In this document: one piece after another, positions 21,220 through 43,603 of the stretch
Numbering within the stretch: position 1 is the stretch's first letter
Layout: each line of letters opens with the position of its first letter
From: Candidatus Multivoradales bacterium
Lineage (GTDB): Bacteria; Acidobacteriota; Thermoanaerobaculia; Multivoradales; JAHEKO01
DNA: 64,000 nucleotides
Assembly: GCA_965223855.1 (NCBI GenBank)
Contig: CBDCXM010000009.1
Span: 2,816,001 to 2,880,000, forward strand
Direction: 5' to 3'
Program-made: the position numbers and the translations under genes
Notes under the pieces: generated by a model
What the model saw: the letters and a program-made list of their open reading frames with translations, nothing else
What the model was told of the DNA's origin: nothing
Databases searched by the model: none

Positions 21220-24200
21220 CTATGGACTGCGCCACACGACCCCTGGCCAGAGGAACCATAGCTCGGCGATGGGTCTGGTTTCGAGCCCGAGTGCCTGCTG
21301 GACGGCGTACAGGTAGGCCTCTTCCTGCGCGTGATAGATGCTGGCCCGAGAAGCGATCTCGTCGCCCTCGACGACATCGGTCTTGAAGTCGACGACCGTC
21401 CAGCTGTCGGCCGAGGCGTCGTGCAGAAGCAGATCGATCGAGCCGACAAGGGCGTGGAGCGACTCCTCGAGGCCGTCGCGATCTTCCCGCCCACCCGCGG
21501 CGGCGGGGGACTCGCTCTCGAGGGCGGGTGGCAGCAGGACGGGCACCTCGCGCCCCACGACGGCCGCCCGGCTCTCGATCCAGCGCGGCCACAGATCGCC
21601 TGCCCGGAAGCGATCGACCAGCTCGTCGAAGCGCCGGGTCGCGTCACCGAGCGTCGTTCCTTCGAGCCCTCGGGCGAGATGCTCCCGCTCCTCTCCTCGG
21701 AGCCGTTCCAGCTCGTCTTCCGGATCCCGATCGAGGCGCCAATGCTCGAAGAGACGATGAACCGCCGTGCCGACGACCAGGGCCACGTCGCGGTCGCCCC
21801 CGCCCGGAACCGAGTCGGCCGGAACCGAGCCGGCCGCCTCCTCGTCGGCTGCCAGCGCTTCGAGCTTCTCGCCGGCCGCAGCCGAGGCGGCACGCGACCG
21901 CGGGCGGGCGGCGCGCCGGCGCGCGCCCTCGCGCTCGTCCTCGAGTGCGGCTGCGGTGCGCGCCATGGCGTCGAGCTCGGGAAGTTCGATGGACCGACCC
22001 CGGGCCGCCGCCGCGGACGGCTCAGCGGAGAGCAATGCAGGGAATCGCCAGCGAACCCCGTCGTGATCGAGCCAACTGCGATCCTCGACGCGACACCTCT
22101 CGGCGAGCTCGGCCACGAGAGTCGGACTCTCCAGGCGCGCATGGAGCAGGTCGAGCAGACTGCCTGCGTCGTCGGCGTCCACCGGCGATGCTTCTGCGGG
22201 CCAACCCCCGAGCGCCACCAGTCGGTGCCGCGCCCGGGTCATGGCGACGTAGAGCAACCGGACACTCTCCGCCGCCTCGGTGGTCGAGGTGCGAGCCTCG
22301 ACGTCGAGCCACCCGAGGGTTGGAGCACCGAGAAGCGCGTACTCGGGCGCATCCGTAGCTCGCCAGCGACGATCGAACTCCGCATCGCCGAGCTCGCGGC
22401 GCTGCTGGCGCGTACGGGCATGGAGCTGGGGGAGGTAGACGTGGTCGAACTCGAGTCCCTTCGCCTTGTGGATCGAAAGCACCTGGACCGTCTCCTCCCC
22501 CGAGTCCTTGGGAGGAGCCTCCTGCGCGTCGGGCGTTTCCTCGAGAGAGCGTCGCAGGGTGCGGACGATCGCTTGCATGTCGTTGCCGCGCTCGGTCATC
22601 GCCGACTCGAGGCGGCGGAAGAACTTGTCGAGATTGGCGAGCCGGTACTTGCCCTGATAGCGGGCTCCCTCGGAGACCTCGAGGAGGGTGAGCCGCCTGA
22701 GGTTGTCGAGGAAGGTGTCGGCGCTCTCCTCTCGGAACTGGCGCCGCAGTTCGGCCAGTGCCGTGACGGCGGAGTCGAGGGCGACCGGCCAGTCGGCAAG
22801 ACCCTCGAGCCCGGGGAGATCCTCGGGAAGCTCGGCGGCAGCCCCGGCGATCGTCTCTCTGAGCCGCTGGAGCGCAGGCGCGTCCGGGCCGTGCAGATCG
22901 GTGAGATCCCCTGGAAAACCGGAGCGCCACAGCGGCAACCAGGCGGCATCCGGCACACCGACGCTCGCCGAGCGCAGCCAGGCGACGAGAGAGAGATGAT
23001 CGAGCGGATCGACCACCGAGCGGACGAGAGCCGCCGCGTCGATCACCTCGCGGCGGCGGAAGTACTGACGATCGCGAGCGACGAGGAACGGGATGTCGAG
23101 AGCGCGGAGCGCGTCGAGATACGGCTCGACCCGCGTCATCGAGCGAAACAGCAGGGCGATCTCGTTCCAGGGGACGCCGGCTTCATGATGAAGGTCGAGG
23201 ATGTCGCGGGCGATCGCGGTCGCCTCGATCTCGAGCGACTCGTCGACCGAGGACGTCGGGTGGAGGTCGTTGCGGCCGTTCGCCCAACTGACCCAGAACT
23301 CGACCGGCGCCCATCGGGGGGCGTCGAGGCGGCTGCCGTCCTGGTCGGGATCGAGTGGGTGAAACGGCGGCTGCACTCCGGTGCGCTCGACCATCGACGG
23401 GGCGACCGCGGCTTCGACCTCCTGCAGGATCGGGGCGTCGGACCGGAAGTTGCGGGTCAGCGGCAGCCGCCGCACGGCGTCGTCACCGGAGTCGGCGAGC
23501 GCAGCGGTGACGAAACCGTCGTAGATGGCGAGGTCGGCGTCCCGCCAGCCGTAGATCGACTGTTTCGGGTCGCCGACGAGGAAGAGGCCGGGGCGAGTCT
23601 CCGCCGGGGCGGCGAGGGCGAGCAGCCGGACGATCTCGCACTGCAGTGGGTCGGTGTCCTGGAACTCGTCCACCAGCAGCTGCCGGATCCGCCGCTGCTC
23701 CCTTCGCAGCAGAGCTTTGTGGGAAGACAGCAGCGCGGCCGCGTGGCGGAGCAGGTCGGCGAAGGTGGCCACACCTCGGGAGGCGGCGAGCCGCTCGCAC
23801 TCGGCCAGCATCGGTCCCAGCGCCCGTCGCGCGAGGTCGAGCCTCGCCGGATCGAGACGGCCGGCATGCGTGAGCAGTCCTCGGAGCTCGCCGATCGCGG
23901 CGGGGAACTCCGGAACCTCGCCGAGTTCGGCCGTTTCCGCCTGGGTCAGCGTGCCGCGACGCCAGGACCTGAGCTTCGAGAAGTGCGGTGCCCAGATCCG
24001 TTCGAGCGCCCGAGCGAGTTCGGTGAGCCCCGCAGCTGTCGCCTCGGCGGCCGCGACCACCGGCAGGCTCTCGTCGAGGGCGGCGGCGATCTCCGGCGCC
24101 TTGCCGCTCCTGACCTGGCGCATCGCGTGCGAGGCCATGTCGTGAACCCGCCGCAAGGCGCCGCCGAGTCGGTCCGTGAACGACTCGATGCGTGGTGGGG

Positions 24201-24906
24201 ACAGCGGGTCGGCTTCGAGCGCTCCCGACTCGACTCCCTCGGAACGCAGAGTCAGGAGCACGGCGGCAAGAGTCTCGGGGCCGACCGCCCGCTCCGAAAG
24301 GAGCGCGAGCGGATTGCCGCGTGGCCGCGCGTAGGCGCCGCGCAGCGCGCGGTCGACGACCTCGTGAACGATTTCTTCCGTCAGACGCAGATCGGCATCG
24401 ACTCGCAGCTCCGGGTGGAGCCCGGCCTCGAGCGGTGCGGCCGCCAGCAGTCCTCGGCAGAAGGCGTGAATCGTCTCGACGGTGAGGTGATCGAGGGCCC
24501 CCAGCAGGTGATGGGCTCGTTCCTGAAGCGCACCGTTCGCCTCCGCGGAGAGGAGTCGCGGGTCGAAACCGACCGGGGGATCGGACGGATCGGCGGCCAG
24601 TCGTGCATAGGCCGAGGCGACTCGGCTCGCCATCTCCGCCGCGCCCGCCTCGGTAAAGGTGATGGCGACGATTCCGTCGAGTACGTCGGCGGCGATCCGT
24701 TCCGGCCTCGCATCGGCATCGGCCTGGTGAGCGGCGTCCCAACCGCGGTCGAGCGACCAGGCGAGGATGCGGGCGACGAGGGTGGTGGTCTTCCCGGTGC
24801 CGGCACCCGCTTCGAGCACCAGCGTCCCGTCGAACTGCGTCTGGGCCGCCTCGCGGCCGGCTGCGTCGGCGCCGGAAGAGAGGCGGGCAGTCGTCGACCT
24901 CGTCAC
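21220..24906 (-). CDS. addA: AddA/RecB-like UvrD helicase with C-terminal PD-(D/E)XK nuclease
   Basis: 'EAGAGTGKT','ITFTEAGA.EM','VDEFQDTD','VGDPKQSIY','NFRS','SIHKAKGLEF','LYVAMTRAR', nuclease 'GSIDLL..VDFKTD'; GTG 24906 overlaps the addB stop. Confidence 0.9.
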   Translation of the reverse strand: MTRSTTARLSSGADAAGREAAQTQFDGTLVLEAGAGTGKTTTLVARILAWSLDRGWDAAHQADADARPERIAADVLDGIVAITFTEAGAAEMASRVASAYARLAADPSDPPVGFDPRLLSAEANGALQERAHHLLGALDHLTVETIHAFCRGLLAAAPLEAGLHPELRVDADLRLTEEIVHEVVDRALRGAYARPRGNPLALLSERAVGPETLAAVLLTLRSEGVESGALEADPLSPPRIESFTDRLGGALRRVHDMASHAMRQVRSGKAPEIAAALDESLPVVAAAEATAAGLTELARALERIWAPHFSKLRSWRRGTLTQAETAELGEVPEFPAAIGELRGLLTHAGRLDPARLDLARRALGPMLAECERLAASRGVATFADLLRHAAALLSSHKALLRREQRRIRQLLVDEFQDTDPLQCEIVRLLALAAPAETRPGLFLVGDPKQSIYGWRDADLAIYDGFVTAALADSGDDAVRRLPLTRNFRSDAPILQEVEAAVAPSMVERTGVQPPFHPLDPDQDGSRLDAPRWAPVEFWVSWANGRNDLHPTSSVDESLEIEATAIARDILDLHHEAGVPWNEIALLFRSMTRVEPYLDALRALDIPFLVARDRQYFRRREVIDAAALVRSVVDPLDHLSLVAWLRSASVGVPDAAWLPLWRSGFPGDLTDLHGPDAPALQRLRETIAGAAAELPEDLPGLEGLADWPVALDSAVTALAELRRQFREESADTFLDNLRRLTLLEVSEGARYQGKYRLANLDKFFRRLESAMTERGNDMQAIVRTLRRSLEETPDAQEAPPKDSGEETVQVLSIHKAKGLEFDHVYLPQLHARTRQQRRELGDAEFDRRWRATDAPEYALLGAPTLGWLDVEARTSTTEAAESVRLLYVAMTRARHRLVALGGWPAEASPVDADDAGSLLDLLHARLESPTLVAELAERCRVEDRSWLDHDGVRWRFPALLSAEPSAAAARGRSIELPELDAMARTAAALEDEREGARRRAARPRSRAASAAAGEKLEALAADEEAAGSVPADSVPGGGDRDVALVVGTAVHRLFEHWRLDRDPEDELERLRGEEREHLARGLEGTTLGDATRRFDELVDRFRAGDLWPRWIESRAAVVGREVPVLLPPALESESPAAAGGREDRDGLEESLHALVGSIDLLLHDASADSWTVVDFKTDVVEGDEIASRASIYHAQEEAYLYAVQQALGLETRPIAELWFLWPGVVWRSP

Positions 24907-27900
24907 GATCCGAGCCGCCAGGACAGCGCGAACGCCGCTTCGAGAGGGGAGAGCGTCGTGACCTGACGAGCGCCGTCGCGCGCCCCCATCCACTCCTTCA
25001 AGCGGCGTCGGGATCCGGAATCACCTCGCAGGCAGGCGTCCCGGACTTCGCATACCCGGCAGCGGAACGGTTCCCGTTCGCCATCGGGCTCCACCATTCG
25101 AGGGTAGAAGGCGCCGAAGTCCCAGGTGGCGAGGCCGGCGGCGACGGCGGCGCCGAAGGCCACTTCGATCTCGTCGTCGTCCCCATCCACCGAGACCTCC
25201 CTCACCGAGCGACCGCCCGCGATCTCCGGATGGAGGAACAGGTAGCGCCCGCGATCGCTCGGCTCACCGCCGGCGAGCGCGTAGGCCGGAGCCTGCAGGC
25301 GATCGCCGCGCCGCACGCCGTCGAGAAGGGCCTTTCGACGACCGGCGGCGGTCTTCGCCTCGGAGACCGGCCGTCGGCCGGTCTTGAGATCGGTGGCGAC
25401 GAAGGAGCGGCCGTGCAGGTCGAGCCGATCCGCCCTGAAGTGCAGCCGTCTGGCCCTGCCGGCGTAGTCCTCGACCTCGAGGACCCCCTCGAGCTCGGCG
25501 CCGAGGACGTGAGGGGGCTCCCTGCCCTCGAGCTCCCTGGCGTGCTCCAGATGGGCTGCGGCGGCACGGGCCAGCAGCTCGGGGAACCCGCGAACCGTGA
25601 GGCCCTCCGCGCGGCACAGCCGCCGCGCGGCTGCGACCACCATCTTCTCCAGATCCCGCTCTTCGGGCCAGGGGATCGGCACCGGCAAACGCGCCCGCGC
25701 CAGCTCGAAGCTCCTGACCTCCTCGCCCAGGCCCCGATGGACGATCTCTTCGGCCACCTGGTGGACCAGAGAGCCGAGCAGCCGCGGCGTGACACCGGGC
25801 AGTGTCGAGAGAGGATCCGGCACCGGGCGCAGCCGCAGAAGCCGCTCCAGGAAGGCCTGCCACGGGCAGCCGGTGAGCCGCTCGAGCGTCGTGATCCAGA
25901 GCTTCTGAAGCCGGCGGGGGTCGTCCTCGGTCGCCCTGCCGACGAGTCCCAGATAGGGCCCTAGATCGCGGCGTGCCGCCCTCCCTGCCTCGGTCGAGAG
26001 ATCGGGGTCCAGGGCGTCGAGAACCTGGACGCGCGCCCGCGCCAGGGCTTCGCGATGGTCGAGATCTTCGGGCAGCAGGCGGCCGAGTGCGTCCCGCAAG
26101 GTCGAGCGGTCACGGCGAATCGCCGTCGCCACCAGCACCTCGTCGGCCGACCGCGGCATCGGATCCGTGCGGGCGAGGGGAGCGCGCGCCAGCGGGGGGC
26201 GTTCCCAGTCGGTATCGTCGCGGCTCCAGCGCAATCGCTCCAGCAGGGGCGAAGGGGCCACGGGGGCCTGATCGTCGTCCGTGTCCTGCCACGAGAGCGT
26301 GACGTGCGGGGCGGAAGCGAGGAGCTGGTCGAAGAGGAAGCGCTCCTCGTCGTGGCCGAGCCGCTTCGGCAGCAGGTCAGGGAGCACCGAATGCCCGAGC
26401 CGTCCGAGAAGGTGCCGCAGCGGATCCGGCAGCAGAGGGTCCTCGCGGACCACGCGGGGGAAGGTGCCGCGGTTGAGACCGATCAGGAAGAGGTGCTCGC
26501 TGGTACGCCCTCGTGCCTCGGTGACGTCGAGAACCTGGATCCCACCGCCACGTCCCCCGAGGGGCACTCGGCCCGAGTCGAGCAACGGGACCGCCAGCAG
26601 CTCGACGAACTCGTCCAGCGTGACGGTGCCGCCGTCGAGCGCCTCGAGCGCGTGCAGGGTCGAAGGGGGCGGAAGGTCTTCTTCCCTCCAATCGAGCGAG
26701 CCCAGCAGGGCCTCGAGGTGCGCGAGATGCTCCGGGACCGTCGTCGCCGACTCCCAGGTGGTGAACCGTTCGACCAGATCGCGGCCGAGCTCGGCTGCGG
26801 CGCGCAGAGTCGCTGCCGGTACCCTCCGCCTTCTCAGGCGGCCGGAACTCTGATCGGCGGACTCGAAGCCGAGGCGGGTGTCGAGGGGCAGATCGTGCGC
26901 CAGCCGGGCTTCGTCCTGAGCGAGCGCCTCGACGTCCTCCAGCCGCGCGATGCCGAGGGCGGCGAGAGCGGTTCTGACCTCGGAGATCGGCCGTCCACCT
27001 ACGGTCGCCGGCAACGAGTCGAGCCATCGTTCGACCGGCACCCGGGAGCGGCGTCGAAGCAGGTCGACGAGGGCGTCCCGACGACGCCCTCCAGCGGTAC
27101 GCGCCGCTCGTGTCGCGTACCCGGAGTAGGGGAGTGCCAGAGCTCTGAACTGCTGTCGCAACGCCCGCTCGTACGGCTGTAACCGTCGGGCGACGACAGA
27201 GATCGTCTCGGGCTGCGCCCCTGCGTCCAGGAGCTGGCGGATTCGCAACGCCACCTCCCGCAGCTCACCGTCGCTGCCGAGAGCGCGGAAGATCTCGAGC
27301 CGTGGTGCATCGGTGCGTGATTCGTCGATCGTTGTCGTGAGATCGCCGAAGCGCTCGCGGAAGTGACGGGTGAACGGGTTGTCGGGAGTTCGATCAGGAT
27401 CGGCGCCCGCGCCCGTGACGGCAGCATCCTGTGCCGCGGCAGCGAGGACCGGATCCGGCGGACGATCGAGGTAGATTCGGCCGCCGCACCTAGCCAGCAG
27501 AGCGCGAAGAAAGTCGATCGCCACGCCGCTCGCGTCGGCGAAACCGTAGACCCAGCAGCTCGATCGGGCGACGAGCGGCGCTTCCGCGAAGAGCGTCTCG
27601 GTCGCACGTTGCAGCACCGTGGAGCGGCGCCCGGTCGACGTGGCCTCGAGTGCGGCATGAGCGGCACCCGCGACCGCCAGCAGGGACCGGGCACGCTCCA
27701 GCTCGCGTTTCGACGCCAGCGTGCCTCCCTCGGCATCGAGGGCCTCCATTGCCGCCTCGCCGAGGGCGGGCTCGAAGCCGGCATCGAGAAGGTCCCGGAC
27801 GCCGGAGAGAAGGGCCGAGTAGCCGTCCTGGAGGTGCTGCAGCTCGCGGCGAAGAACCCGGTCGGCTTCGGCCGCCCGGCGCACCAGCAGCGGGAACAGG

Positions 27901-28223
27901 TCGCGCCCCGCAAGAGCCCTGCCGGCGGCGTCGTCGACCGCCTCGAGGGCGGCACCGAAAAGTGTCGTGATCCGCACTCCGATGACGGCGCCCCTGAGGG
28001 CGACGATCCTCGCGTGAAGGTGATCGCGCAGCGCCTGTGAGGGCACGACGATGAGCAGCGCTCGGTAGTCCGGGTCGCCCGGCTGCGGTCGCGCCGCGAG
28101 GTCGGACAGCAGCCTGTGCTCGGCTGCAAGAGGGCCGGCGGTGAGAACGAGCCTGCGTTCGCTGCCCGAGGTCGAGCCGGGACCGGGGCTCGGTGTCGGT
28201 CCGGAGTCCGGGTCGCGCGTCAC
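24903..28223 (-). CDS. addB: AddB-like helicase-fold/PD-(D/E)XK nuclease subunit with Fe-S 'iron staple' cysteines
   Basis: Directly upstream of addA; 'TTLERLTGCPWQAFLERLL', 'RADRLD..DLKTG', 'LQAPAYA', 'CRVCEVRDAC'; start uncertain. Confidence 0.83.
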   Translation of the reverse strand: MTRDPDSGPTPSPGPGSTSGSERRLVLTAGPLAAEHRLLSDLAARPQPGDPDYRALLIVVPSQALRDHLHARIVALRGAVIGVRITTLFGAALEAVDDAAGRALAGRDLFPLLVRRAAEADRVLRRELQHLQDGYSALLSGVRDLLDAGFEPALGEAAMEALDAEGGTLASKRELERARSLLAVAGAAHAALEATSTGRRSTVLQRATETLFAEAPLVARSSCWVYGFADASGVAIDFLRALLARCGGRIYLDRPPDPVLAAAAQDAAVTGAGADPDRTPDNPFTRHFRERFGDLTTTIDESRTDAPRLEIFRALGSDGELREVALRIRQLLDAGAQPETISVVARRLQPYERALRQQFRALALPYSGYATRAARTAGGRRRDALVDLLRRRSRVPVERWLDSLPATVGGRPISEVRTALAALGIARLEDVEALAQDEARLAHDLPLDTRLGFESADQSSGRLRRRRVPAATLRAAAELGRDLVERFTTWESATTVPEHLAHLEALLGSLDWREEDLPPPSTLHALEALDGGTVTLDEFVELLAVPLLDSGRVPLGGRGGGIQVLDVTEARGRTSEHLFLIGLNRGTFPRVVREDPLLPDPLRHLLGRLGHSVLPDLLPKRLGHDEERFLFDQLLASAPHVTLSWQDTDDDQAPVAPSPLLERLRWSRDDTDWERPPLARAPLARTDPMPRSADEVLVATAIRRDRSTLRDALGRLLPEDLDHREALARARVQVLDALDPDLSTEAGRAARRDLGPYLGLVGRATEDDPRRLQKLWITTLERLTGCPWQAFLERLLRLRPVPDPLSTLPGVTPRLLGSLVHQVAEEIVHRGLGEEVRSFELARARLPVPIPWPEERDLEKMVVAAARRLCRAEGLTVRGFPELLARAAAAHLEHARELEGREPPHVLGAELEGVLEVEDYAGRARRLHFRADRLDLHGRSFVATDLKTGRRPVSEAKTAAGRRKALLDGVRRGDRLQAPAYALAGGEPSDRGRYLFLHPEIAGGRSVREVSVDGDDDEIEVAFGAAVAAGLATWDFGAFYPRMVEPDGEREPFRCRVCEVRDACLRGDSGSRRRLKEWMGARDGARQVTTLSPLEAAFALSWRLGS

Positions 28224-28296
28224 CGTCCGATGGCAGCATGCCCCCCTCCCCGCTGTCAACCATGCGGCGACCGCGTGGGATACTCCCGCCTCGGGC

Positions 28297-28971
28297 ATGC
28301 AGATCACCGAACCGACGACGCTCCTCACCGACTACCTGCTCGCTGCGGTAGGCATCTTCTTCGCCGCCAGGCTCGGGCGAGCGTTGAAGGGCAGTCTCGC
28401 TCGGTCGGCCGGGAGCGACTCGGCGGCGGATCCTCGGTCGGTGACGATCTGGTGGCGGCGGGCGCTTCTCGGCATGAGTGCCGGCGCCCTGCTGGGAGGA
28501 ACGTTTCACGGCTTCACGCTGCTGTTGCCCCAGTGGGCCCTGACCGCTCTGTGGAAGGGGACGATGCTCTCCATCGGCGCCGCCAGCGCGGCGCTTCTCC
28601 TCGCCTCGGTGGCGGCCTTCGGCATGCGCCCCTCCGCGCGCGGCTGGGTCTGGCTGGCCGGCGTCAAGTGGGTACTCTTCGCCGCCTGGGTGCTGTTCGT
28701 CGATGACCGGTTCCTCGTCGCCATCCTCGACTACGGCAGCGTGATGATCGCCAGTGTCGCGATTCACGGGGTGGCCGTGCTCTCGTCTCGTCGCTGGGCA
28801 CGGTGGATCCTGGCCGGTCTGGCGACCTCCCTGCTCGCCTCCGTCGTGCAGCAGTTCGGTCCGAGTCTCCACCGGCACTTCAACCACAACGACCTCTACC
28901 ACCTGATTCAGATGGTGGCGTTGTGGCTGCTCTATCGGGGTGCGTTGGCGGCTGTCGACTCCGACGGCTGA
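28297..28971 (+). CDS. Integral membrane protein (DUF6962-like, ~7 TM)
   Basis: 'EPTTLLTDYLLA', 'GGTFHGF', 'FNHNDLYHLIQM' His-containing conserved motifs. Confidence 0.75.
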   Translation: MQITEPTTLLTDYLLAAVGIFFAARLGRALKGSLARSAGSDSAADPRSVTIWWRRALLGMSAGALLGGTFHGFTLLLPQWALTALWKGTMLSIGAASAALLLASVAAFGMRPSARGWVWLAGVKWVLFAAWVLFVDDRFLVAILDYGSVMIASVAIHGVAVLSSRRWARWILAGLATSLLASVVQQFGPSLHRHFNHNDLYHLIQMVALWLLYRGALAAVDSDG

Positions 28972-35587: not shown

Positions 35588-35613
35588 TATACTGCCCACT
35601 CCTCCCGGAGGAG
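35588..35613 (+). promoter_or_regulatory. -10 box TATACT plus an anti-SD/SD hairpin upstream of REC-lpxC
   Basis: TATACT 35588-35593; CTCCTCC 35599-35605 is the reverse complement of SD GGAGGAG 35607-35613. Confidence 0.45.
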
Positions 35614-35622
35614 ACCCCCGCG

Positions 35623-36936
35623 ATGACCGCTGCCTCGCTGACCACGACCGTTCTGATCGTCGACGACGAACCCGGCATTCTCGCCACCTTGTCCGGCGTC
35701 CTCGCCGACGAGGGCTACGCGACGCTGACCGCCGAGAGCGGGGAGCGCGCGATCGAGCTGTACGCTCGGGAGTCGCCCGATGTTGTCTTCCTCGACGTCT
35801 GGTTGCCCGACAAGGACGGTCTCGAGATCCTGCAGGCGCTGCGCGAGCAGGATCCGGCGGCGGCGGTGATCATGATGTCGGGGCACGGCACCGCCTCGAC
35901 GGCGGTCAAGGCGATCAAGATGGGGGCGTTCGAGTACGTCGAGAAGCCGCTGTCCTACAACGAGGCTGTCGATGCCGTCGCAGGCGCCCTCCAGTATCGG
36001 GAGTCGGTGAGCCGCGACAGCGACCTGCTTTCGACGCTCGAGAAGACCAAGACCCGCCTCGAGGAGAGTCCGCGGCTGCAGCCGCCGCCGCCACTGCCGC
36101 TCCTCCAGGTGACCGACGAGCCGCAGCGCACGCTCGCTGCCGGGACGGTCCTCTACGGTCTCGGTCTCCACTCCGGCAACCGGACCGGCATGACGCTCCA
36201 GCCGCTGCCGGTCGACACCGGGATTCACTTCGTCTCGCTACCGACGAATACGGTGCTGCCGGCTCACATCTCGTCGGTGGCCGAGACCGACTACGCGACG
36301 ACCCTGTCGCGCGACGGCCAGGACATCAAGACGGTCGAACACCTCCTCTCTGCCTTGCGTGCAGCGGGAGTGACGAACCTGCTCATCAAGGTGCACGGCG
36401 AGATTCCGGTGCTCGACGGTTCCGCGCTCGAGTTCTGCGAGGCGCTCGAGCGGGTCGGCGTCGTCGAGCAGTCGGCGCCGCGCCGGGAGATCGTCATCGA
36501 CCGTCGCTACGAGGTGAGCGGCGAAGGGGGCAAGCAGCTCAGCATCGAGCCTGCTGAGACCTTCTCGGCACGCTACGAGCTCAGCTACCCGCCGCCGGTC
36601 GGGGATCAGGTGTGTGAGTTCGAACTCACCGACTACGACTCCTATCGCGATGCGATCGCGCCCGCCCGGACATTCGGTTTCATGAAGGACCTCGGCATGA
36701 TGCAGGAACTCGGGCTCGGCACCGGCGGCCGGCTCGACAACTGCATCCTCGTCGGCGAAGACAACGTCATCAACACCCGCCTGCGCTTCTCTGACGAGTT
36801 TGCCCGTCACAAGGTGCTCGACATCATCGGCGACCTCTACCTTCTCGGCTACCCGATTCGTGGGCGGGTCGTCGGCCGTCTGACCGGTCACAAGATGAAC
36901 ATCGCCCTGCTGCGCGAGATCGCGGCGACGGCCTGA
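35623..36936 (+). CDS. lpxC: Receiver (REC) domain fused to UDP-3-O-acyl-GlcNAc deacetylase LpxC
   Basis: REC 'VLIVDDE..FLDVWLPDKDG..MMSGHG..AVKAIKMGAFEYVEKP'; LpxC 'QRTL..G.GLHSG','TVEHLLSAL','EIPVLDGSA','ARTFGF','EFARHKVLDIIGDL','GHKMN'; single frame, no stop between the domains. Confidence 0.92.
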   Translation: MTAASLTTTVLIVDDEPGILATLSGVLADEGYATLTAESGERAIELYARESPDVVFLDVWLPDKDGLEILQALREQDPAAAVIMMSGHGTASTAVKAIKMGAFEYVEKPLSYNEAVDAVAGALQYRESVSRDSDLLSTLEKTKTRLEESPRLQPPPPLPLLQVTDEPQRTLAAGTVLYGLGLHSGNRTGMTLQPLPVDTGIHFVSLPTNTVLPAHISSVAETDYATTLSRDGQDIKTVEHLLSALRAAGVTNLLIKVHGEIPVLDGSALEFCEALERVGVVEQSAPRREIVIDRRYEVSGEGGKQLSIEPAETFSARYELSYPPPVGDQVCEFELTDYDSYRDAIAPARTFGFMKDLGMMQELGLGTGGRLDNCILVGEDNVINTRLRFSDEFARHKVLDIIGDLYLLGYPIRGRVVGRLTGHKMNIALLREIAATA

Positions 36937-36941
36937 ATTCC

Positions 36942-37895
36942 TTGTTTCGCGCCTTCACCAGCGAGCGGTGCCAGCTCCACAGGCCCCCGGCCGGCGCACC
37001 CGAGCGGCCGGAGCGGCTCGAGGCCGTGCGGCAGGGGGTCGTCGATGCGGGCTGGGACCTCGAAGACGTGAACGAGGGGAGATACCGGGAGGAAGAGGTT
37101 CGCGAGGCGATCCACGCTTCGCACAGCGCGGCCTATGTCGAGCGCTTCGAGCGTGCCGTCCGGCGGGGTGACGGGCTGATCGACTCGGCCGACAACCCTT
37201 TGTCTCCGGGGACGTTCGCGGGCTCGCTGGCCGCGGTCGAGGTGGCGCTGGCAGCGACCGACGCGGTCGGCTCGGGCGAACTGAGGCAGTCCTTCGCTGC
37301 GGTGCGGCCTCCCGGGCACCACGCCGAGCGCGACGAGGCGATGGGGTTCTGCTACTTCGCCAACGCCGCGATCGCCGCCGAGCGGCTGCTCGGCCGCCAC
37401 GACCTCGAGAAGGTCGCGGTGGTCGACTTCGACGTCCACCATGGCAACGGCACGCAGCATCTGTTCGAGGAACGGGCCGACGTCTTCTTCGCCAGCCTCC
37501 ATCAGCACCCGTTCTATCCCGGCACCGGGCTCGCCTCGGAGCAGGGGCGGGGCGAGGGCCTCGGAGCCACCCTCAACCTCCCGCTCCCGGCAGGTCTTTC
37601 GAGTGCCGAGTTCGAGAGCGTGATCGACGAGCGGCTGCTGCCGGCGTTGAGGGAGTTCGCGCCGCAGGCGATCGTCGTCTCGGCGGGCTTCGACGGCTGG
37701 GTCGATGACCCGCTGGGGGGATGGCGGGTCGAAACCGAGAGCTACCGGTGGGTGGGGGAGCGCCTGGTCGCGGCGGCGGAGGCGAGCTCGAAAGGCCGGC
37801 TGGTGGCCCTCCTCGAGGGTGGGTACAGCCTCGAGGGGTTGCGCCATGCGACTGCGGCCTTCCTCTCCGGAGTGGCGCGCCGGCCGCCGGTATAA
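36942..37895 (+). CDS. Histone deacetylase family (class II-like) amidohydrolase
   Basis: 'PERPERL','RPPGHHA','MGFCYF.N','DFDVHHGNGTQ','SAGFD','LEGGY'. Confidence 0.93.
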   Translation: MFRAFTSERCQLHRPPAGAPERPERLEAVRQGVVDAGWDLEDVNEGRYREEEVREAIHASHSAAYVERFERAVRRGDGLIDSADNPLSPGTFAGSLAAVEVALAATDAVGSGELRQSFAAVRPPGHHAERDEAMGFCYFANAAIAAERLLGRHDLEKVAVVDFDVHHGNGTQHLFEERADVFFASLHQHPFYPGTGLASEQGRGEGLGATLNLPLPAGLSSAEFESVIDERLLPALREFAPQAIVVSAGFDGWVDDPLGGWRVETESYRWVGERLVAAAEASSKGRLVALLEGGYSLEGLRHATAAFLSGVARRPPV

Positions 37896-41072: not shown

Positions 41073-42284
41073 TCAGCTCTCGGCGAGCCGTTCGACCCCT
41101 GCGTAGCCACCCTCTTCGAGTGACGCAAGCAGGCGTTCACCGTGCTCCGGATCCCGGGTCTCGAGGGTGAGGTCGACCGATGCGGACCAGAAGTCGGCTC
41201 CGGCGAAGTTGCGATCGTGCTCGACCCTGCGGACGTTGGCCCCCTCGCGCGCGACGGCGTCGAGCAGGCCTGCGAGCGCACCCGGGCGATCGCTGAGTCG
41301 GACCCGCAGGCGGATGAGGCGCCGCCGACGCACGAGCGATCGCTCGACCACCCGCGCGAGGACGCCGGGGTCGATGTTGCCGCCACTGATCACCACGACG
41401 ACCTTGCGGCCGGCGAACCGTCTATCCGGGGCGAGAAGCGGGGCGCATGCAGCGGCACCGGCCCCCTCGACGACGAGCTTCGAGCCGTCGAGCAGCTCGT
41501 AGATCGCCTCTTCGATCTCGCGCTCCGAAACGGTCCGGATCGCCTCTACAGTGCTGCTGACGATCGAGAACGTGAGCTCACCCGGCAGGCGCACGCTCAG
41601 CCCTTCCGCGAGAGTGGGCCCGACGAGGTGGCTACTGCGCTCGCCGCTGTCGAAGCTGAGTTTCATCGCCGGCGCGGCCTCGCTCTGAACTCCGAGCACC
41701 CGCGTCGGTGCCGTCGCCAGCGCCGACCCGATGCCGGAGATCAGGCCGCCGCCGCCGATGCCGACGAGCACATCGTCGGCGTCGGGGACCTGCTCGGCGA
41801 TCTCGAGTCCGACCGTCCCCTGGCCCGCGATCACGTCGGGGTGATCGAACGGAGGGACGAGGGTGCGCCCCTCCCTCCCGGCGATCTCGATCGCATGCTC
41901 CTGAGCCTCGTCGAAGACGCTGCCCGCCAGAACGACCTCCGCCCCCAATGCGCGGGTCCGCTCGATCTTCACCAGCGGTGTCGGTTCCGGCATGACGATG
42001 AGGGCGGAGACCCCCAGATGGCGGGCACCGAAGGCGACTCCCTGCGCGTGATTGCCCGCCGATGCGGCGACGACGCCGCGAGCGCGCTCGTCCTCCGGGA
42101 GACGAAGCATCCGATGAGTGGCGCCACGAACCTTGAAGGAGCCGGTGTGCTGGAGACTCTCCAGCTTGAGCCAGACCTCGGCTCCCGACGTCTCGCAAAG
42201 ACGCGCGTCCCGGATCACCGGCGTCACCGGCAGATAGGGCGCGAGGCGTTCGCGGGCGGCCTCAATTGCGGAAAGGTCGATCAT
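41073..42284 (-). CDS. ilvA: Threonine ammonia-lyase with C-terminal ACT domain
   Basis: 'KLESLQHTGSFKVRGA','ASAGNHAQGVA','GQGTVGLEI','GGGGLISG','SGGNID', ACT 'DRPGAL'; start at 42284 or 42314. Confidence 0.9.
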   Translation of the reverse strand: MIDLSAIEAARERLAPYLPVTPVIRDARLCETSGAEVWLKLESLQHTGSFKVRGATHRMLRLPEDERARGVVAASAGNHAQGVAFGARHLGVSALIVMPEPTPLVKIERTRALGAEVVLAGSVFDEAQEHAIEIAGREGRTLVPPFDHPDVIAGQGTVGLEIAEQVPDADDVLVGIGGGGLISGIGSALATAPTRVLGVQSEAAPAMKLSFDSGERSSHLVGPTLAEGLSVRLPGELTFSIVSSTVEAIRTVSEREIEEAIYELLDGSKLVVEGAGAAACAPLLAPDRRFAGRKVVVVISGGNIDPGVLARVVERSLVRRRRLIRLRVRLSDRPGALAGLLDAVAREGANVRRVEHDRNFAGADFWSASVDLTLETRDPEHGERLLASLEEGGYAGVERLAES

Positions 42285-42388
42285 CGACTGCGCACGCGGC
42301 GACGGCTCGGTCAAGATATCAGAGGGTCGGGGGCTTCCGGCCCGACACTCGACCGCCGGGAGGGATTCGACTAGGCTCCCGTTTTCAC

Positions 42389-43603
42389 ATGCTCGATCTG
42401 CTCAGCCCCCTCGCTTTCGTCGCGGCCGGCCTTCTGGTGCTCGTGCTGCTTCTGACCTGGTTGCTCTACCGGGTCTCGAGGCGGGTGCGGGCCTTCGAGC
42501 GCGACGTCGCGACCCTGAGGTCGGCGGCAAACCAGGCGAGTCGCGCCGAGGCGCAGGAGGCCTCGCTCGATCGGCTGCTGGTCGATCTGACACGTCTGAC
42601 GGAGCGTCTGCGCGATGCTCGCGACGCCCGCGAGATTCCGCAACTCGTCGTCCACATCGTTCAGCGCACCTTCGATGCGGATCAGGTCGTGGTCCTCTTT
42701 GCACGACGCCCGGCGGAGACGCAGGGCAAGTCGCCGACCCTGGTGGTGGCCGCATCGTCGTCCGGCTCGCTCGAGCGGGCGCTCAACCGCGAGATCGGCT
42801 TCGGCGAGGGAGAGCTGGGGCTGGTCGCCGATCTGCAGGAGGCCGTCGACCGCCAGGATCTCGACGGCCGCCGCATCCCGGGGCACACGACGGTGCCGGG
42901 ACTGCGATCGTTCCGCACCGACCTCGCCGTGCCGATGGTGGTCGCAGGGCAGACCTTCGGGGTCGTCGCCGTGTCGGGCCTCGGACGGCACTACCGGCGC
43001 GAGAAGACGATGCTGTCGCTGATCGCCCAGACCGCCGGCTTCGGCCTGCAGAGCGCGGCGTCCTATTCCGCGCTCAAGGCGAAGGCCGATCTCGACGGGC
43101 TGACCCGCATTCTCAACCGGCGCGCCGTCGACTACCGCCTCGGTGAACTGGTCTTCGAGGCAGAGCGGTCCGGGCGTGAGGTCGGAGTCGTGCTGCTCGA
43201 CGTCGATCACTTCAAGCCCTACAACGACAACAACGGACATGCGGCCGGCGATCGGGCGCTCCAGGATCTGGCGGCTCTCGTCAACGAGTCCCTGCGCGCG
43301 GAGGATGTCTTCGGCCGCTTCGGTGGAGAGGAGTTCGTCGTCGTCGCGCCGAATCAGTCGGTGGCCTCGACCTACGGCCTGGCGGAGAAGCTGCGGTCGA
43401 AGATCGAGGCTCACGACTTCGAGTACGCGGTCGACCAGCCGCTGGGTCGGGTCACCGTGAGCGGCGGCATCGCCGTCTTCCCGCACCACGGCCGCGACAG
43501 CACGGACCTGCTGCAGAGCGCGGACCAGGCGCTCTACAAGGCGAAGCAGGCAGGGCGGAACCGGATCGAGATCAGCCCGGCTCAGGCGGCGGGGGGATCG
43601 TGA
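42389..43603 (+). CDS. Membrane-anchored GAF-GGDEF diguanylate cyclase
   Basis: N-terminal TM; GAF; 'DGLTRILNRR','DVDHFKPYND..GHAAGD', I-site RAED, 'RFGGEEF','ADQALYKAKQAGRN'. Confidence 0.92.
   Translation: MLDLLSPLAFVAAGLLVLVLLLTWLLYRVSRRVRAFERDVATLRSAANQASRAEAQEASLDRLLVDLTRLTERLRDARDAREIPQLVVHIVQRTFDADQVVVLFARRPAETQGKSPTLVVAASSSGSLERALNREIGFGEGELGLVADLQEAVDRQDLDGRRIPGHTTVPGLRSFRTDLAVPMVVAGQTFGVVAVSGLGRHYRREKTMLSLIAQTAGFGLQSAASYSALKAKADLDGLTRILNRRAVDYRLGELVFEAERSGREVGVVLLDVDHFKPYNDNNGHAAGDRALQDLAALVNESLRAEDVFGRFGGEEFVVVAPNQSVASTYGLAEKLRSKIEAHDFEYAVDQPLGRVTVSGGIAVFPHHGRDSTDLLQSADQALYKAKQAGRNRIEISPAQAAGGS

Follow-up and report, generated by a model that had tools for sequence, protein, structure and literature searches.

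A receiver domain fused to the only LpxC of an Acidobacteriota genome: a candidate for direct kinase control of lipid A synthesis

Outer-membrane lipid synthesis has its control point in LpxC, which is also a target for antibiotics. What is understood of its regulation comes mainly from enterobacteria, in which proteolysis governs it; for most other diderm phyla the question is open. In Desulfovibrio vulgaris, the sigma54 regulator DVU2934 is described as having a single target, lpxC, and the same study notes orthologues of this regulator in Acidobacterium capsulatum and places lpxC directly upstream of the regulator operon in Syntrophobacter fumaroxidans (PMC3333781). In Desulfovibrio alaskensis, Dde_3000 and Dde_3003 are reported to act on lpxC, which has a sigma54 site there, and a mutant of the kinase Dde_3000 raises lpxC alone (PMC4045070). 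In Rhodobacter sphaeroides and Caulobacter crescentus, NtrYX represses lpxC transcription according to a 2025 review of lipid A regulation, in which the terms "receiver," "fusion," "fused," and "Acidobacteri" are absent (PMC12444477). Our literature search (top matches by title and abstract, with subscription journals outside its scope) returned no description of an LpxC fused to a receiver (REC) domain, and searching more broadly for response-regulator censuses turned up nothing about LpxC. Such a protein is encoded in the window analyzed here, a stretch of 64,000 nucleotides (nt) from a soil-type Candidatus Multivoradales bacterium (Acidobacteriota, class Thermoanaerobaculia; contig CBDCXM010000009.1, positions 2,816,001 to 2,880,000). 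With a probability of about 0.62, we read the product of this REC-LpxC gene as a response regulator with an LpxC output, through whose fused REC domain an orphan NtrY-type kinase would control LpxC.

The product, P0001, is read from a single frame of 437 codons with no internal stop, and its start position is matched by the aligned N-termini of 26 relatives. Its N-terminal part matches Response_reg (PF00072) with an E-value of 2.9e-29 and 101.9 bits (cut-off, 30.2) over profile positions 1-110 of 111 and carries the receiver motifs D14-D15, D58 within FLDVWLP, S86-G-H-G89, and K108-P109. Its C-terminal part matches LpxC (PF03331) with an E-value of 2.3e-84 and 283.5 bits (cut-off, 27) over profile positions 1-267 of 268, scores 236.4 bits with the NCBIfam lpxC model TIGR00325 (cut-off, 187.25), and aligns with the Pseudomonas aeruginosa LpxC structure 5u39 (E = 1.6e-51), the EH, HKxxD, and GH motifs falling in matching positions; only 3 residues follow the Pfam domain, so there is no C-terminal tail. 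An initial annotation made from the sequence had described one uninterrupted frame behind a strong Shine-Dalgarno sequence, with these REC motifs and a full LpxC carrying EH, the zinc motif, and the catalytic GH, and all of this is borne out; its linker of about 35 amino acids (aa) measures 48 aa between the Pfam boundaries. In the structure model of P0001, REC helix 5 is extended into this linker to about residue 142, with a Pro-rich part after it.

The label "NtrX-like" in the same annotation holds for the REC domain, for which NtrX, AtoC, and NtrC are the best NCBIfam names, and does not hold for family membership: the NtrX equivalog NF051870 scores 106 bits, on the REC part only, against a cut-off of 600, and a Pfam scan finds neither an AAA+ nor a Fis-type helix-turn-helix (HTH) domain in P0001, so its domain content is not that of NtrX. 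The LpxC-FabZ model NF009667 matches the LpxC part only, with 199.6 bits against a cut-off of 465, and P0001 is not a member of that family either. Independently assembled short-read contigs from X1, X2, and X3, three runs of a single sample from which the assembly itself may derive, span the domain junction with 0 differences and 0 gaps; no stop or frameshift, named beforehand as one way in which the reading could fail, separates the domains. The REC-LpxC fusion frame is real. An apparent joint in the contigs at 35672/36270 was rejected as noise, its sides being 20 letters long and the contigs otherwise unmatched to the stretch.

Homologues are fused as well, which the proposal had made a point to check, and the fusion is conserved in the phylum, in the class, and under other phylum labels. 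Both Pfam domains are present in all 120 best hits listed from a large protein collection (66-100% identity, 429-462 aa), and these hits, where named by their source, are called plain LpxC. Among the best 150 representatives of 50%-identity clusters, about 23 have the length of this short form with both domains and 15 have that of a long form. A full-length, one-frame match was obtained in 27 of 401 sampled phylum genomes, the window's genome included, and the remaining genomes of that sample match in the LpxC part or the REC part alone; one-frame REC-LpxC occurs in 47 other fetched genomes of the phylum. In the class sample, LpxC is present in 121 of 121 genomes and the fused form in 34, the one-frame arrangement being confirmed with our own profiles in 33 fetched genomes, with the window gene as the 34th. 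These phylum and class tallies, like those for kinase and regulator below, include four genomes flagged as unpublished (G024, G049, G152, and G466), all unfused; nothing else reported here depends on these four. The fused-bearing class genomes comprise 25 with the fused gene only, seven that also have a canonical full-length lpxC (G459, G433, G406, G418, G421, G444, and G448), and two with a partial LpxC-like remnant beside the fused gene (G256 and G460). Among named genome records, 24 of the best 80 of 586 confirmed stretches are fused, and 15 of these 24 bear labels other than Acidobacteriota: "Deltaproteobacteria" metagenome-assembled genomes, Syntrophobacteraceae, Desulfomonile, Thermodesulfobacteriota, Binatia, Nitrospinota, Nitrospirota, and one uncultured bacterium.

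Residues of both domains are invariant in 65 of 65 aligned fused proteins under six phylum labels, namely D14, D15, D58, S86, K108, and P109 in REC and E239, H240, H396, K397, D400, D404, and H423 in LpxC, and REC position 105, that of the aromatic switch residue, holds Y or F in each of 27 proteins aligned. The catalytic and zinc-binding residues of LpxC are at least 95% conserved in fused and unfused sets alike. Ten positions (188, 189, 195, 246, 256, 272, 309, 322, 385, and 406) distinguish fused from unfused LpxCs, none of them among these conserved catalytic or zinc-binding positions.

The two remnants (G256:C35:13454-14002, in locus L069, and G460:C194:6497-7042, in L065) cover Pfam LpxC positions 1-181 with 83-90 bits and look like decaying canonical lpxC copies; that of G256 lies just upstream of the NtrY-type kinase gene, the expected place of canonical lpxC. 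In an Acidobacteriaceae record (L139:10001-11742), a tblastn match covers REC and LpxC over 1742 nt with LpxC in a separate 312-aa frame, and a REC-bearing gene seems to lie just upstream of an unfused lpxC.

In the window's genome (G000), a 4.52-Mb assembly that is 92.5% complete, the LpxC family search has a single match, which is the REC-LpxC gene itself; whether it was the sole lpxC had been posed as a check, and no other was found. The genes lpxA, lpxB, and lpxK are found elsewhere in the genome, lpxA about 96 kb away at G000:C9:2948052. Since this is the sole LpxC in the cell, the predicted deacetylase P0001 must catalyze the committed step of lipid A synthesis in this organism. The zinc-ribbon family of LapB (PF18073) has a sub-threshold match in G000; this family is unspecific and matches 10 of 14 control genomes, Gram-positives among them.

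No kinase is encoded among the genes around REC-LpxC in the window, as had been noted from the sequence. Of 51 fused loci examined, seven, none of them from Acidobacteriota, have a kinase gene as the immediate upstream neighbor on the same strand, with a gap of -4 to +57 nt to the fused gene (358 nt in L110). These operon kinases have 734-778 aa and the architecture NtrY_N-HAMP-PAS-HisKA-HATPase_c. With such a kinase as protein query, G000 yields one full-length homologue, at C8:564140-566323 (728 aa; 33% identity over residues 22-738 of 761), with HAMP, PAS, HisKA, and HATPase_c domains and no REC within about 8 kb. The orphan NtrY-like kinase that the initial annotation had proposed to look for was thus found, with no response regulator beside it. 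The same kinase is present in 120 of 121 class genomes. In a REC tree, the fused REC falls into one clade (Shimodaira-Hasegawa-like approximate likelihood ratio test [SH-aLRT], 98) with the regulators that neighbor the kinase.

A DUF4390 gene (PF14334) always stands directly before the NtrY-type kinase in the class, in fused and unfused genomes (for example, L186:7561-8109, which is on C8 of G000, L075:3146-3757, and L077:3106-3738). Its N-terminus is signal-peptide-like by eye in the copies inspected, and by analogy it may be a periplasmic partner of the kinase with a role comparable to that of Caulobacter NtrZ.

We compared the kinase locus between unfused and fused genomes of the class. The unfused arrangement is smpB on the minus strand followed by lpxC, DUF4390, kinase, and regulator, the regulator having the domains REC-Sigma54_activat-lid-HTH_8. 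It follows the kinase in all 12 genomes with canonical lpxC beside the kinase (10 unfused, 2 two-copy), every one of these 12 regulators has G[AS]FTGA, and the four scanned have NtrX as best NCBIfam match at 460-483 bits (cut-off, 600). The regulator follows the kinase in none of 8 fused-only genomes. In all 8, smpB on the minus strand is followed by DUF4390 and kinase, with DUF4390 kept (tblastn) and no LpxC match between smpB and DUF4390, which are 64 nt apart in G000. The best regulator match reaches an E-value of 6.6e-133 or better in 82 of 87 unfused class genomes and is weaker in all 25 fused-only genomes (2.9e-109 to 4.6e-131); in those with a listed best hit, the hit is not beside the kinase and has the score tier of the second hit listed in many unfused genomes.

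The five unfused exceptions, with regulator matches of about 1e-124, make up genus g23 of family f7 (G286, G389, G423, G446, and G454); they have a kinase match of about 1e-50 or none and keep canonical lpxC, a pattern by which the kinase/regulator circuit is dispensable in some lineages. In another unfused genome, G107, the regulator is located elsewhere, and in G373 the regulator beside the kinase (G373:C36:9358-10695, in L189) has one in-frame TAG, which may reflect a sequencing error or incipient decay. Both remnant genomes still have the regulator next to the kinase, so decay of lpxC can precede loss of the regulator.

A scan for sigma54-like promoters covered the 400 nt that precede the first domain and used the pattern TGGCAC-N5-TTGC, in which GG and GC had to match; scores of at least 9/10 were obtained for 36 of 92 unfused lpxC genes (shuffle mean, 0.8, maximum, 3; reverse strand, 0) versus 2 of 72 fused genes (shuffle mean, 0.5, maximum, 2; reverse strand, 0). 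The sites lie mostly 36-108 nt before the domain. Among 24 canonical class lpxC loci, two-copy genomes included, 16 score at least 9, seven score 8, and one scores 7; the window's REC-LpxC gene scores 6/10. In the window's lineage, the kinase and DUF4390 genes remain, while the transcription factor of the kinase and the lpxC driven by sigma54 have been lost. In the unfused relatives, these sequence patterns suggest an older circuit, in which the kinase would act on the sigma54-dependent regulator and this in turn on the sigma54 promoter of lpxC.

An LpxC-domain tree of 48 fused and 37 unfused phylum proteins splits the two kinds at a single branch with an SH-aLRT of 100, and so does a wider tree of 49 fused (43 short and 6 long) and 78 unfused proteins from many phyla (one branch, SH-aLRT 100). 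The wider tree took 25 of the 48 fused and 24 of the 37 unfused proteins of the first set and left out LpxC pieces of less than about 240 aa; both trees come from quick searches and have no outgroup. The fusion has a single origin. The root of the trees lies most likely on the unfused side, since that side holds Pseudomonadota, Cyanobacteriota, Gemmatimonadota, and others. The fusion family is old and occurs under several phylum labels. In the two-copy genomes, each copy groups with the same-kind copy of its own family, which points to long co-existence of fused and canonical copies and later differential loss. In families f19 and f22, the fused copies fall within those of f12, which suggests transfer of the fused gene among these families.

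Six long relatives from Desulfomonile, Thermodesulfobacteriota, and Nitrospinota (659-734 aa) have REC-Sigma54_activat-AAA_lid_14-LpxC in one frame. The N-terminal parts of four of them were compared with NCBIfam, and all four had NtrX as best match, at 244-363 bits (cut-off, 600); GAFTGA is present in none of the six and Walker A in all six. By eye, a Fis-type HTH stretch before LpxC is seemingly kept in the long forms of L112 and L116. Given these AAA+ relatives, the ancestor appears to have been an NtrX/NtrC-type regulator (REC-AAA+-HTH) joined to LpxC, from which the short form dropped the AAA+ part. The long forms are scattered, with weak support, among basal short forms inside the fused side, and the NtrX-like REC-AAA+ ancestor appears to have lost its AAA+ part repeatedly.

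In the mechanism that we favor, an NtrY-type membrane histidine kinase would phosphorylate D58, the candidate in G000 being the orphan on C8 beside the putatively periplasmic DUF4390 protein. The phosphorylation state of REC, which packs compactly on LpxC in the model, would alter deacetylase activity; we weakly prefer the version in which REC holds LpxC back while unphosphorylated and frees it once phosphorylated, as in CheB. The AlphaFold2 model of whole P0001 has a mean predicted local distance difference test (pLDDT) of 91.8 and a predicted template modeling score (pTM) of 0.91, with a helix at residues 112-142 and pLDDT of 76-92 over residues 131-160, and a Binatia member has a pTM of 0.81. 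Such pTM values exceed what we would expect of two freely tethered domains and give a hint of a fixed REC-LpxC contact. A complex prediction from separate REC (1-145) and LpxC (160-437) chains scored 0.00; it was run without controls and gives no verdict either way. Direct two-component control of lipid A flux, the central proposal of the initial annotation, is supported by three checks (the sole lpxC, the fused homologues, and the orphan kinase); phosphotransfer from the G000 kinase, the effect on LpxC activity, and its sign are what we infer.

Several points weigh against this mechanism. Regulation of LpxC by REC rests on sequence and on models that supply scores only and do not define the interface, and the linker is disordered in the model of the Binatia member. 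The published circuits disagree on sign, the phosphorylated Desulfovibrio regulator activating and alphaproteobacterial NtrYX repressing. The kinase evidence is partial in its domains (Pfam NtrY_N, PF19312, has no match in a six-frame search of G000), the kinase gene is unlinked to REC-LpxC and on another contig, and G000 holds 4-5 orphan kinase-like open reading frames (ORFs) and 13 orphan REC ORFs. Most unfused genomes have the kinase too, so its retention needs no fusion, and in the two-copy genomes and both remnant genomes the kinase's own regulator persists in addition to the fused gene. An orphan NtrC-type regulator of G000 (C9:3217976-3219298) falls into the same REC clade and is a rival substrate; the tree does not separate the fused REC, the kinase-side regulators, and this orphan, and it does not settle the kinase pairing. 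The class-wide E-value gap for the regulator is narrow (4.6e-131 to 6.6e-133) and clear within families only, and related genomes are not independent observations, so that counts across kin overstate independence.

Among the alternatives, the one that survives best, unlikely as we judge it, is that phosphorylated REC sets the amount or the location of LpxC, through degradation by an AAA+ protease or membrane recruitment, and not catalysis directly. Enterobacterial LpxC is described as controlled mainly by proteolysis (PMC12444477). At three loci of f49, a deep Acidobacteriota branch, the gene immediately upstream on the same strand encodes a ClpB-like protein of about 1000 aa (AAA, AAA_2, ClpB_D2-small); however, this neighbor is limited to one sub-clade, and the window gene is without it. 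The N-terminal 400 aa of these ClpB-like proteins have no domain assignment, and their genes overlap the fused gene or lie within 24 nt of it. The high full-length pTM suggests a fixed REC-LpxC contact, which is just as compatible with direct gating; none of the evidence discriminates between the two.

We consider it distinctly improbable that REC is a structural or dimerization pseudo-receiver which no kinase uses, with LpxC constitutive or otherwise regulated. Phosphorylation-independent receiver domains are known, and an adjacent kinase is found at 0 of 36 Acidobacteriota fused loci examined. Pseudo-receivers, however, usually lose phospho-site residues, whereas all five and the K-P motif are invariant across the 65 aligned proteins; moreover, kinase and fused gene form operons in seven relatives, and the fused-only genomes retain such a kinase as an orphan. 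We give an equally low chance to REC-LpxC being phospho-regulated by some other kinase, with the orphan NtrY-type kinase serving the NtrC-type regulator at C9:3217976-3219298. That regulator is an orphan too, shares the REC clade, and has 115.9 bits against the fused-REC profile, the top score in G000 after the fused REC itself, and other orphan kinase-like ORFs are available at C8:371467, C9:1387915, and C9:3027335. Yet many unfused genomes have, besides the kinase-adjacent regulator, a listed hit of its score tier, which makes it a probable member of a distinct orthologous group that has another partner; in other phyla, moreover, the NtrY-type kinase is encoded with the fused gene. That the single frame is an assembly or frameshift artefact joining two genes is already refuted by the same architecture in 47 other phylum genomes, 24 of 80 named-record loci, and 120 of 120 best hits, and by contigs that cross the junction unchanged.

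Beyond direct control of LpxC by the kinase, we tentatively extend the reading, at somewhat less than even odds, to DUF4390, NtrY-type kinase, and REC-LpxC together as an ancient post-translational switch found under at least six phylum labels. In several lineages, this switch would have replaced both the sigma54-transcribed lpxC and its transcription factor while the sensor was kept, and in the long forms LpxC activity would be tied to the nucleotide state or ring assembly of the AAA+ part. We know of no lipid A enzyme for which such an AAA+-coupled arrangement has been described.

The coordinates of the features are collected in Table 1. Neighbors of REC-LpxC in the window are a MacB-type exporter, a glycoside hydrolase family 3 (NagZ-like) hydrolase, a cyclophilin, a histone deacetylase (HDAC)-family deacetylase, and an E1 dehydrogenase. 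They are not conserved beside the fused gene in relatives, where the E1 dehydrogenase alone recurs, at 5 loci, and the HDAC-like, cyclophilin, and NagZ-like genes were not found beside it. The HDAC-family gene starts 6 nt past the REC-LpxC stop and may be co-transcribed with it. A diguanylate cyclase gene lies 5 kb downstream, and upstream are an AddAB-like pair and a DUF6962 gene.

Table 1. Positions of the REC-LpxC gene, its parts, and other features (window positions unless a locus is given)
Feature	Position	Strand	Remark
REC-LpxC gene (P0001)	35623..36936	+	437 aa + stop, ATG start
Shine-Dalgarno-like GGAGGAG	35607..35613	+	9 nt 5' of ATG; read from sequence
REC domain, NtrC/NtrX type, residues 10-119	35650..35979	+	PF00072
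D58 codon, predicted phospho-acceptor Asp	35794..35796	+	invariant in fused proteins (65/65)
Linker, residues 120-167	35980..36123	+	sequence variable in alignment
LpxC deacetylase domain, residues 168-434	36124..36924	+	PF03331
E239-H240 codons	36337..36342	+	general base and first zinc ligand, by alignment to P. aeruginosa LpxC
H396-K397-V-L-D400 codons	36808..36822	+	HKxxD zinc-binding motif
H423 codon	36889..36891	+	catalytic His of GH motif (G422-H423)
HDAC-family gene	36942-37895	+	PF00850, E 2.2e-84
GAF-GGDEF diguanylate cyclase gene	42266-43603	+	
AddAB-like pair	21220-28328	-	UvrD-type helicase (1257 aa) and PD-(D/E)XK nuclease (1141 aa)
DUF6962	28141-28971		
Kinase + fused gene loci	L108, L110, L112, L113, L114, L117, L123		
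ClpB-like gene, f49	L035:10322-13288	-	
ClpB-like gene, f49	L037:10278-13304	-	
ClpB-like gene, f49	L109:7008-9998	+	
Long form	L112:3813-6014		
Long form	L115:8717-10825		
Long form	L116:354-2543		
Long form	L118:8861-10945		
Long form	L119:9992-11968		
Long form	L120:8768-10822		

A receiver in the sole LpxC would route an envelope sensor kinase to lipid A flux, bypassing transcription and proteolysis. The comparative pattern ties the NtrYX-lpxC connection of alphaproteobacteria to the dedicated sigma54 regulator of lpxC in Desulfovibrio and suggests that control of LpxC by kinases is both old and widespread. Natural genomes with the fused gene only, the canonical gene only, or both, together with a named candidate kinase, make this regulation of LpxC testable.

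The Desulfovibrio circuits (DVU2931/DVU2934 with lpxC DVU2917, and Dde_3000/Dde_3003 with lpxC) are likewise LpxC-dedicated two-component systems with an NtrC-type regulator. By layout and published description, they are matched by the window's unfused relatives, which have a sigma54-like promoter before lpxC, the kinase, and a GAFTGA regulator. The Desulfovibrio circuit acts on transcription, whereas in the window the enzyme itself bears the receiver, with neither the DNA-binding regulator nor the sigma54-like promoter present. NtrY-NtrX resembles the fused system in that NtrX is the best NCBIfam match for the REC domain and the long forms, the operon kinases have NtrY_N, and there is a link to lpxC; the long forms also share with NtrX, which is without GAFTGA, the absence of this motif. 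Unlike NtrX, the window protein has no AAA+ or HTH domain, scores far under the NtrX cut-off, and has an enzyme as output.

CheB, a REC-methylesterase, and other regulators with enzymatic output share the order of N-terminal REC, linker, and hydrolase, and CheB is the model for active-site gating by an unphosphorylated REC; output fold, pathway, and kinase type are different. The canonical LpxC of Escherichia coli and P. aeruginosa, with FtsH/LapB/YejM proteolysis, has the same catalytic domain and residues, but the fused proteins form a separate clade with ten signature positions and an N-terminal REC, and the window protein has no C-terminal tail. In LpxC-FabZ, LpxC is also part of a fusion, but there the partner is a second enzyme at the C-terminus and not a signaling domain.

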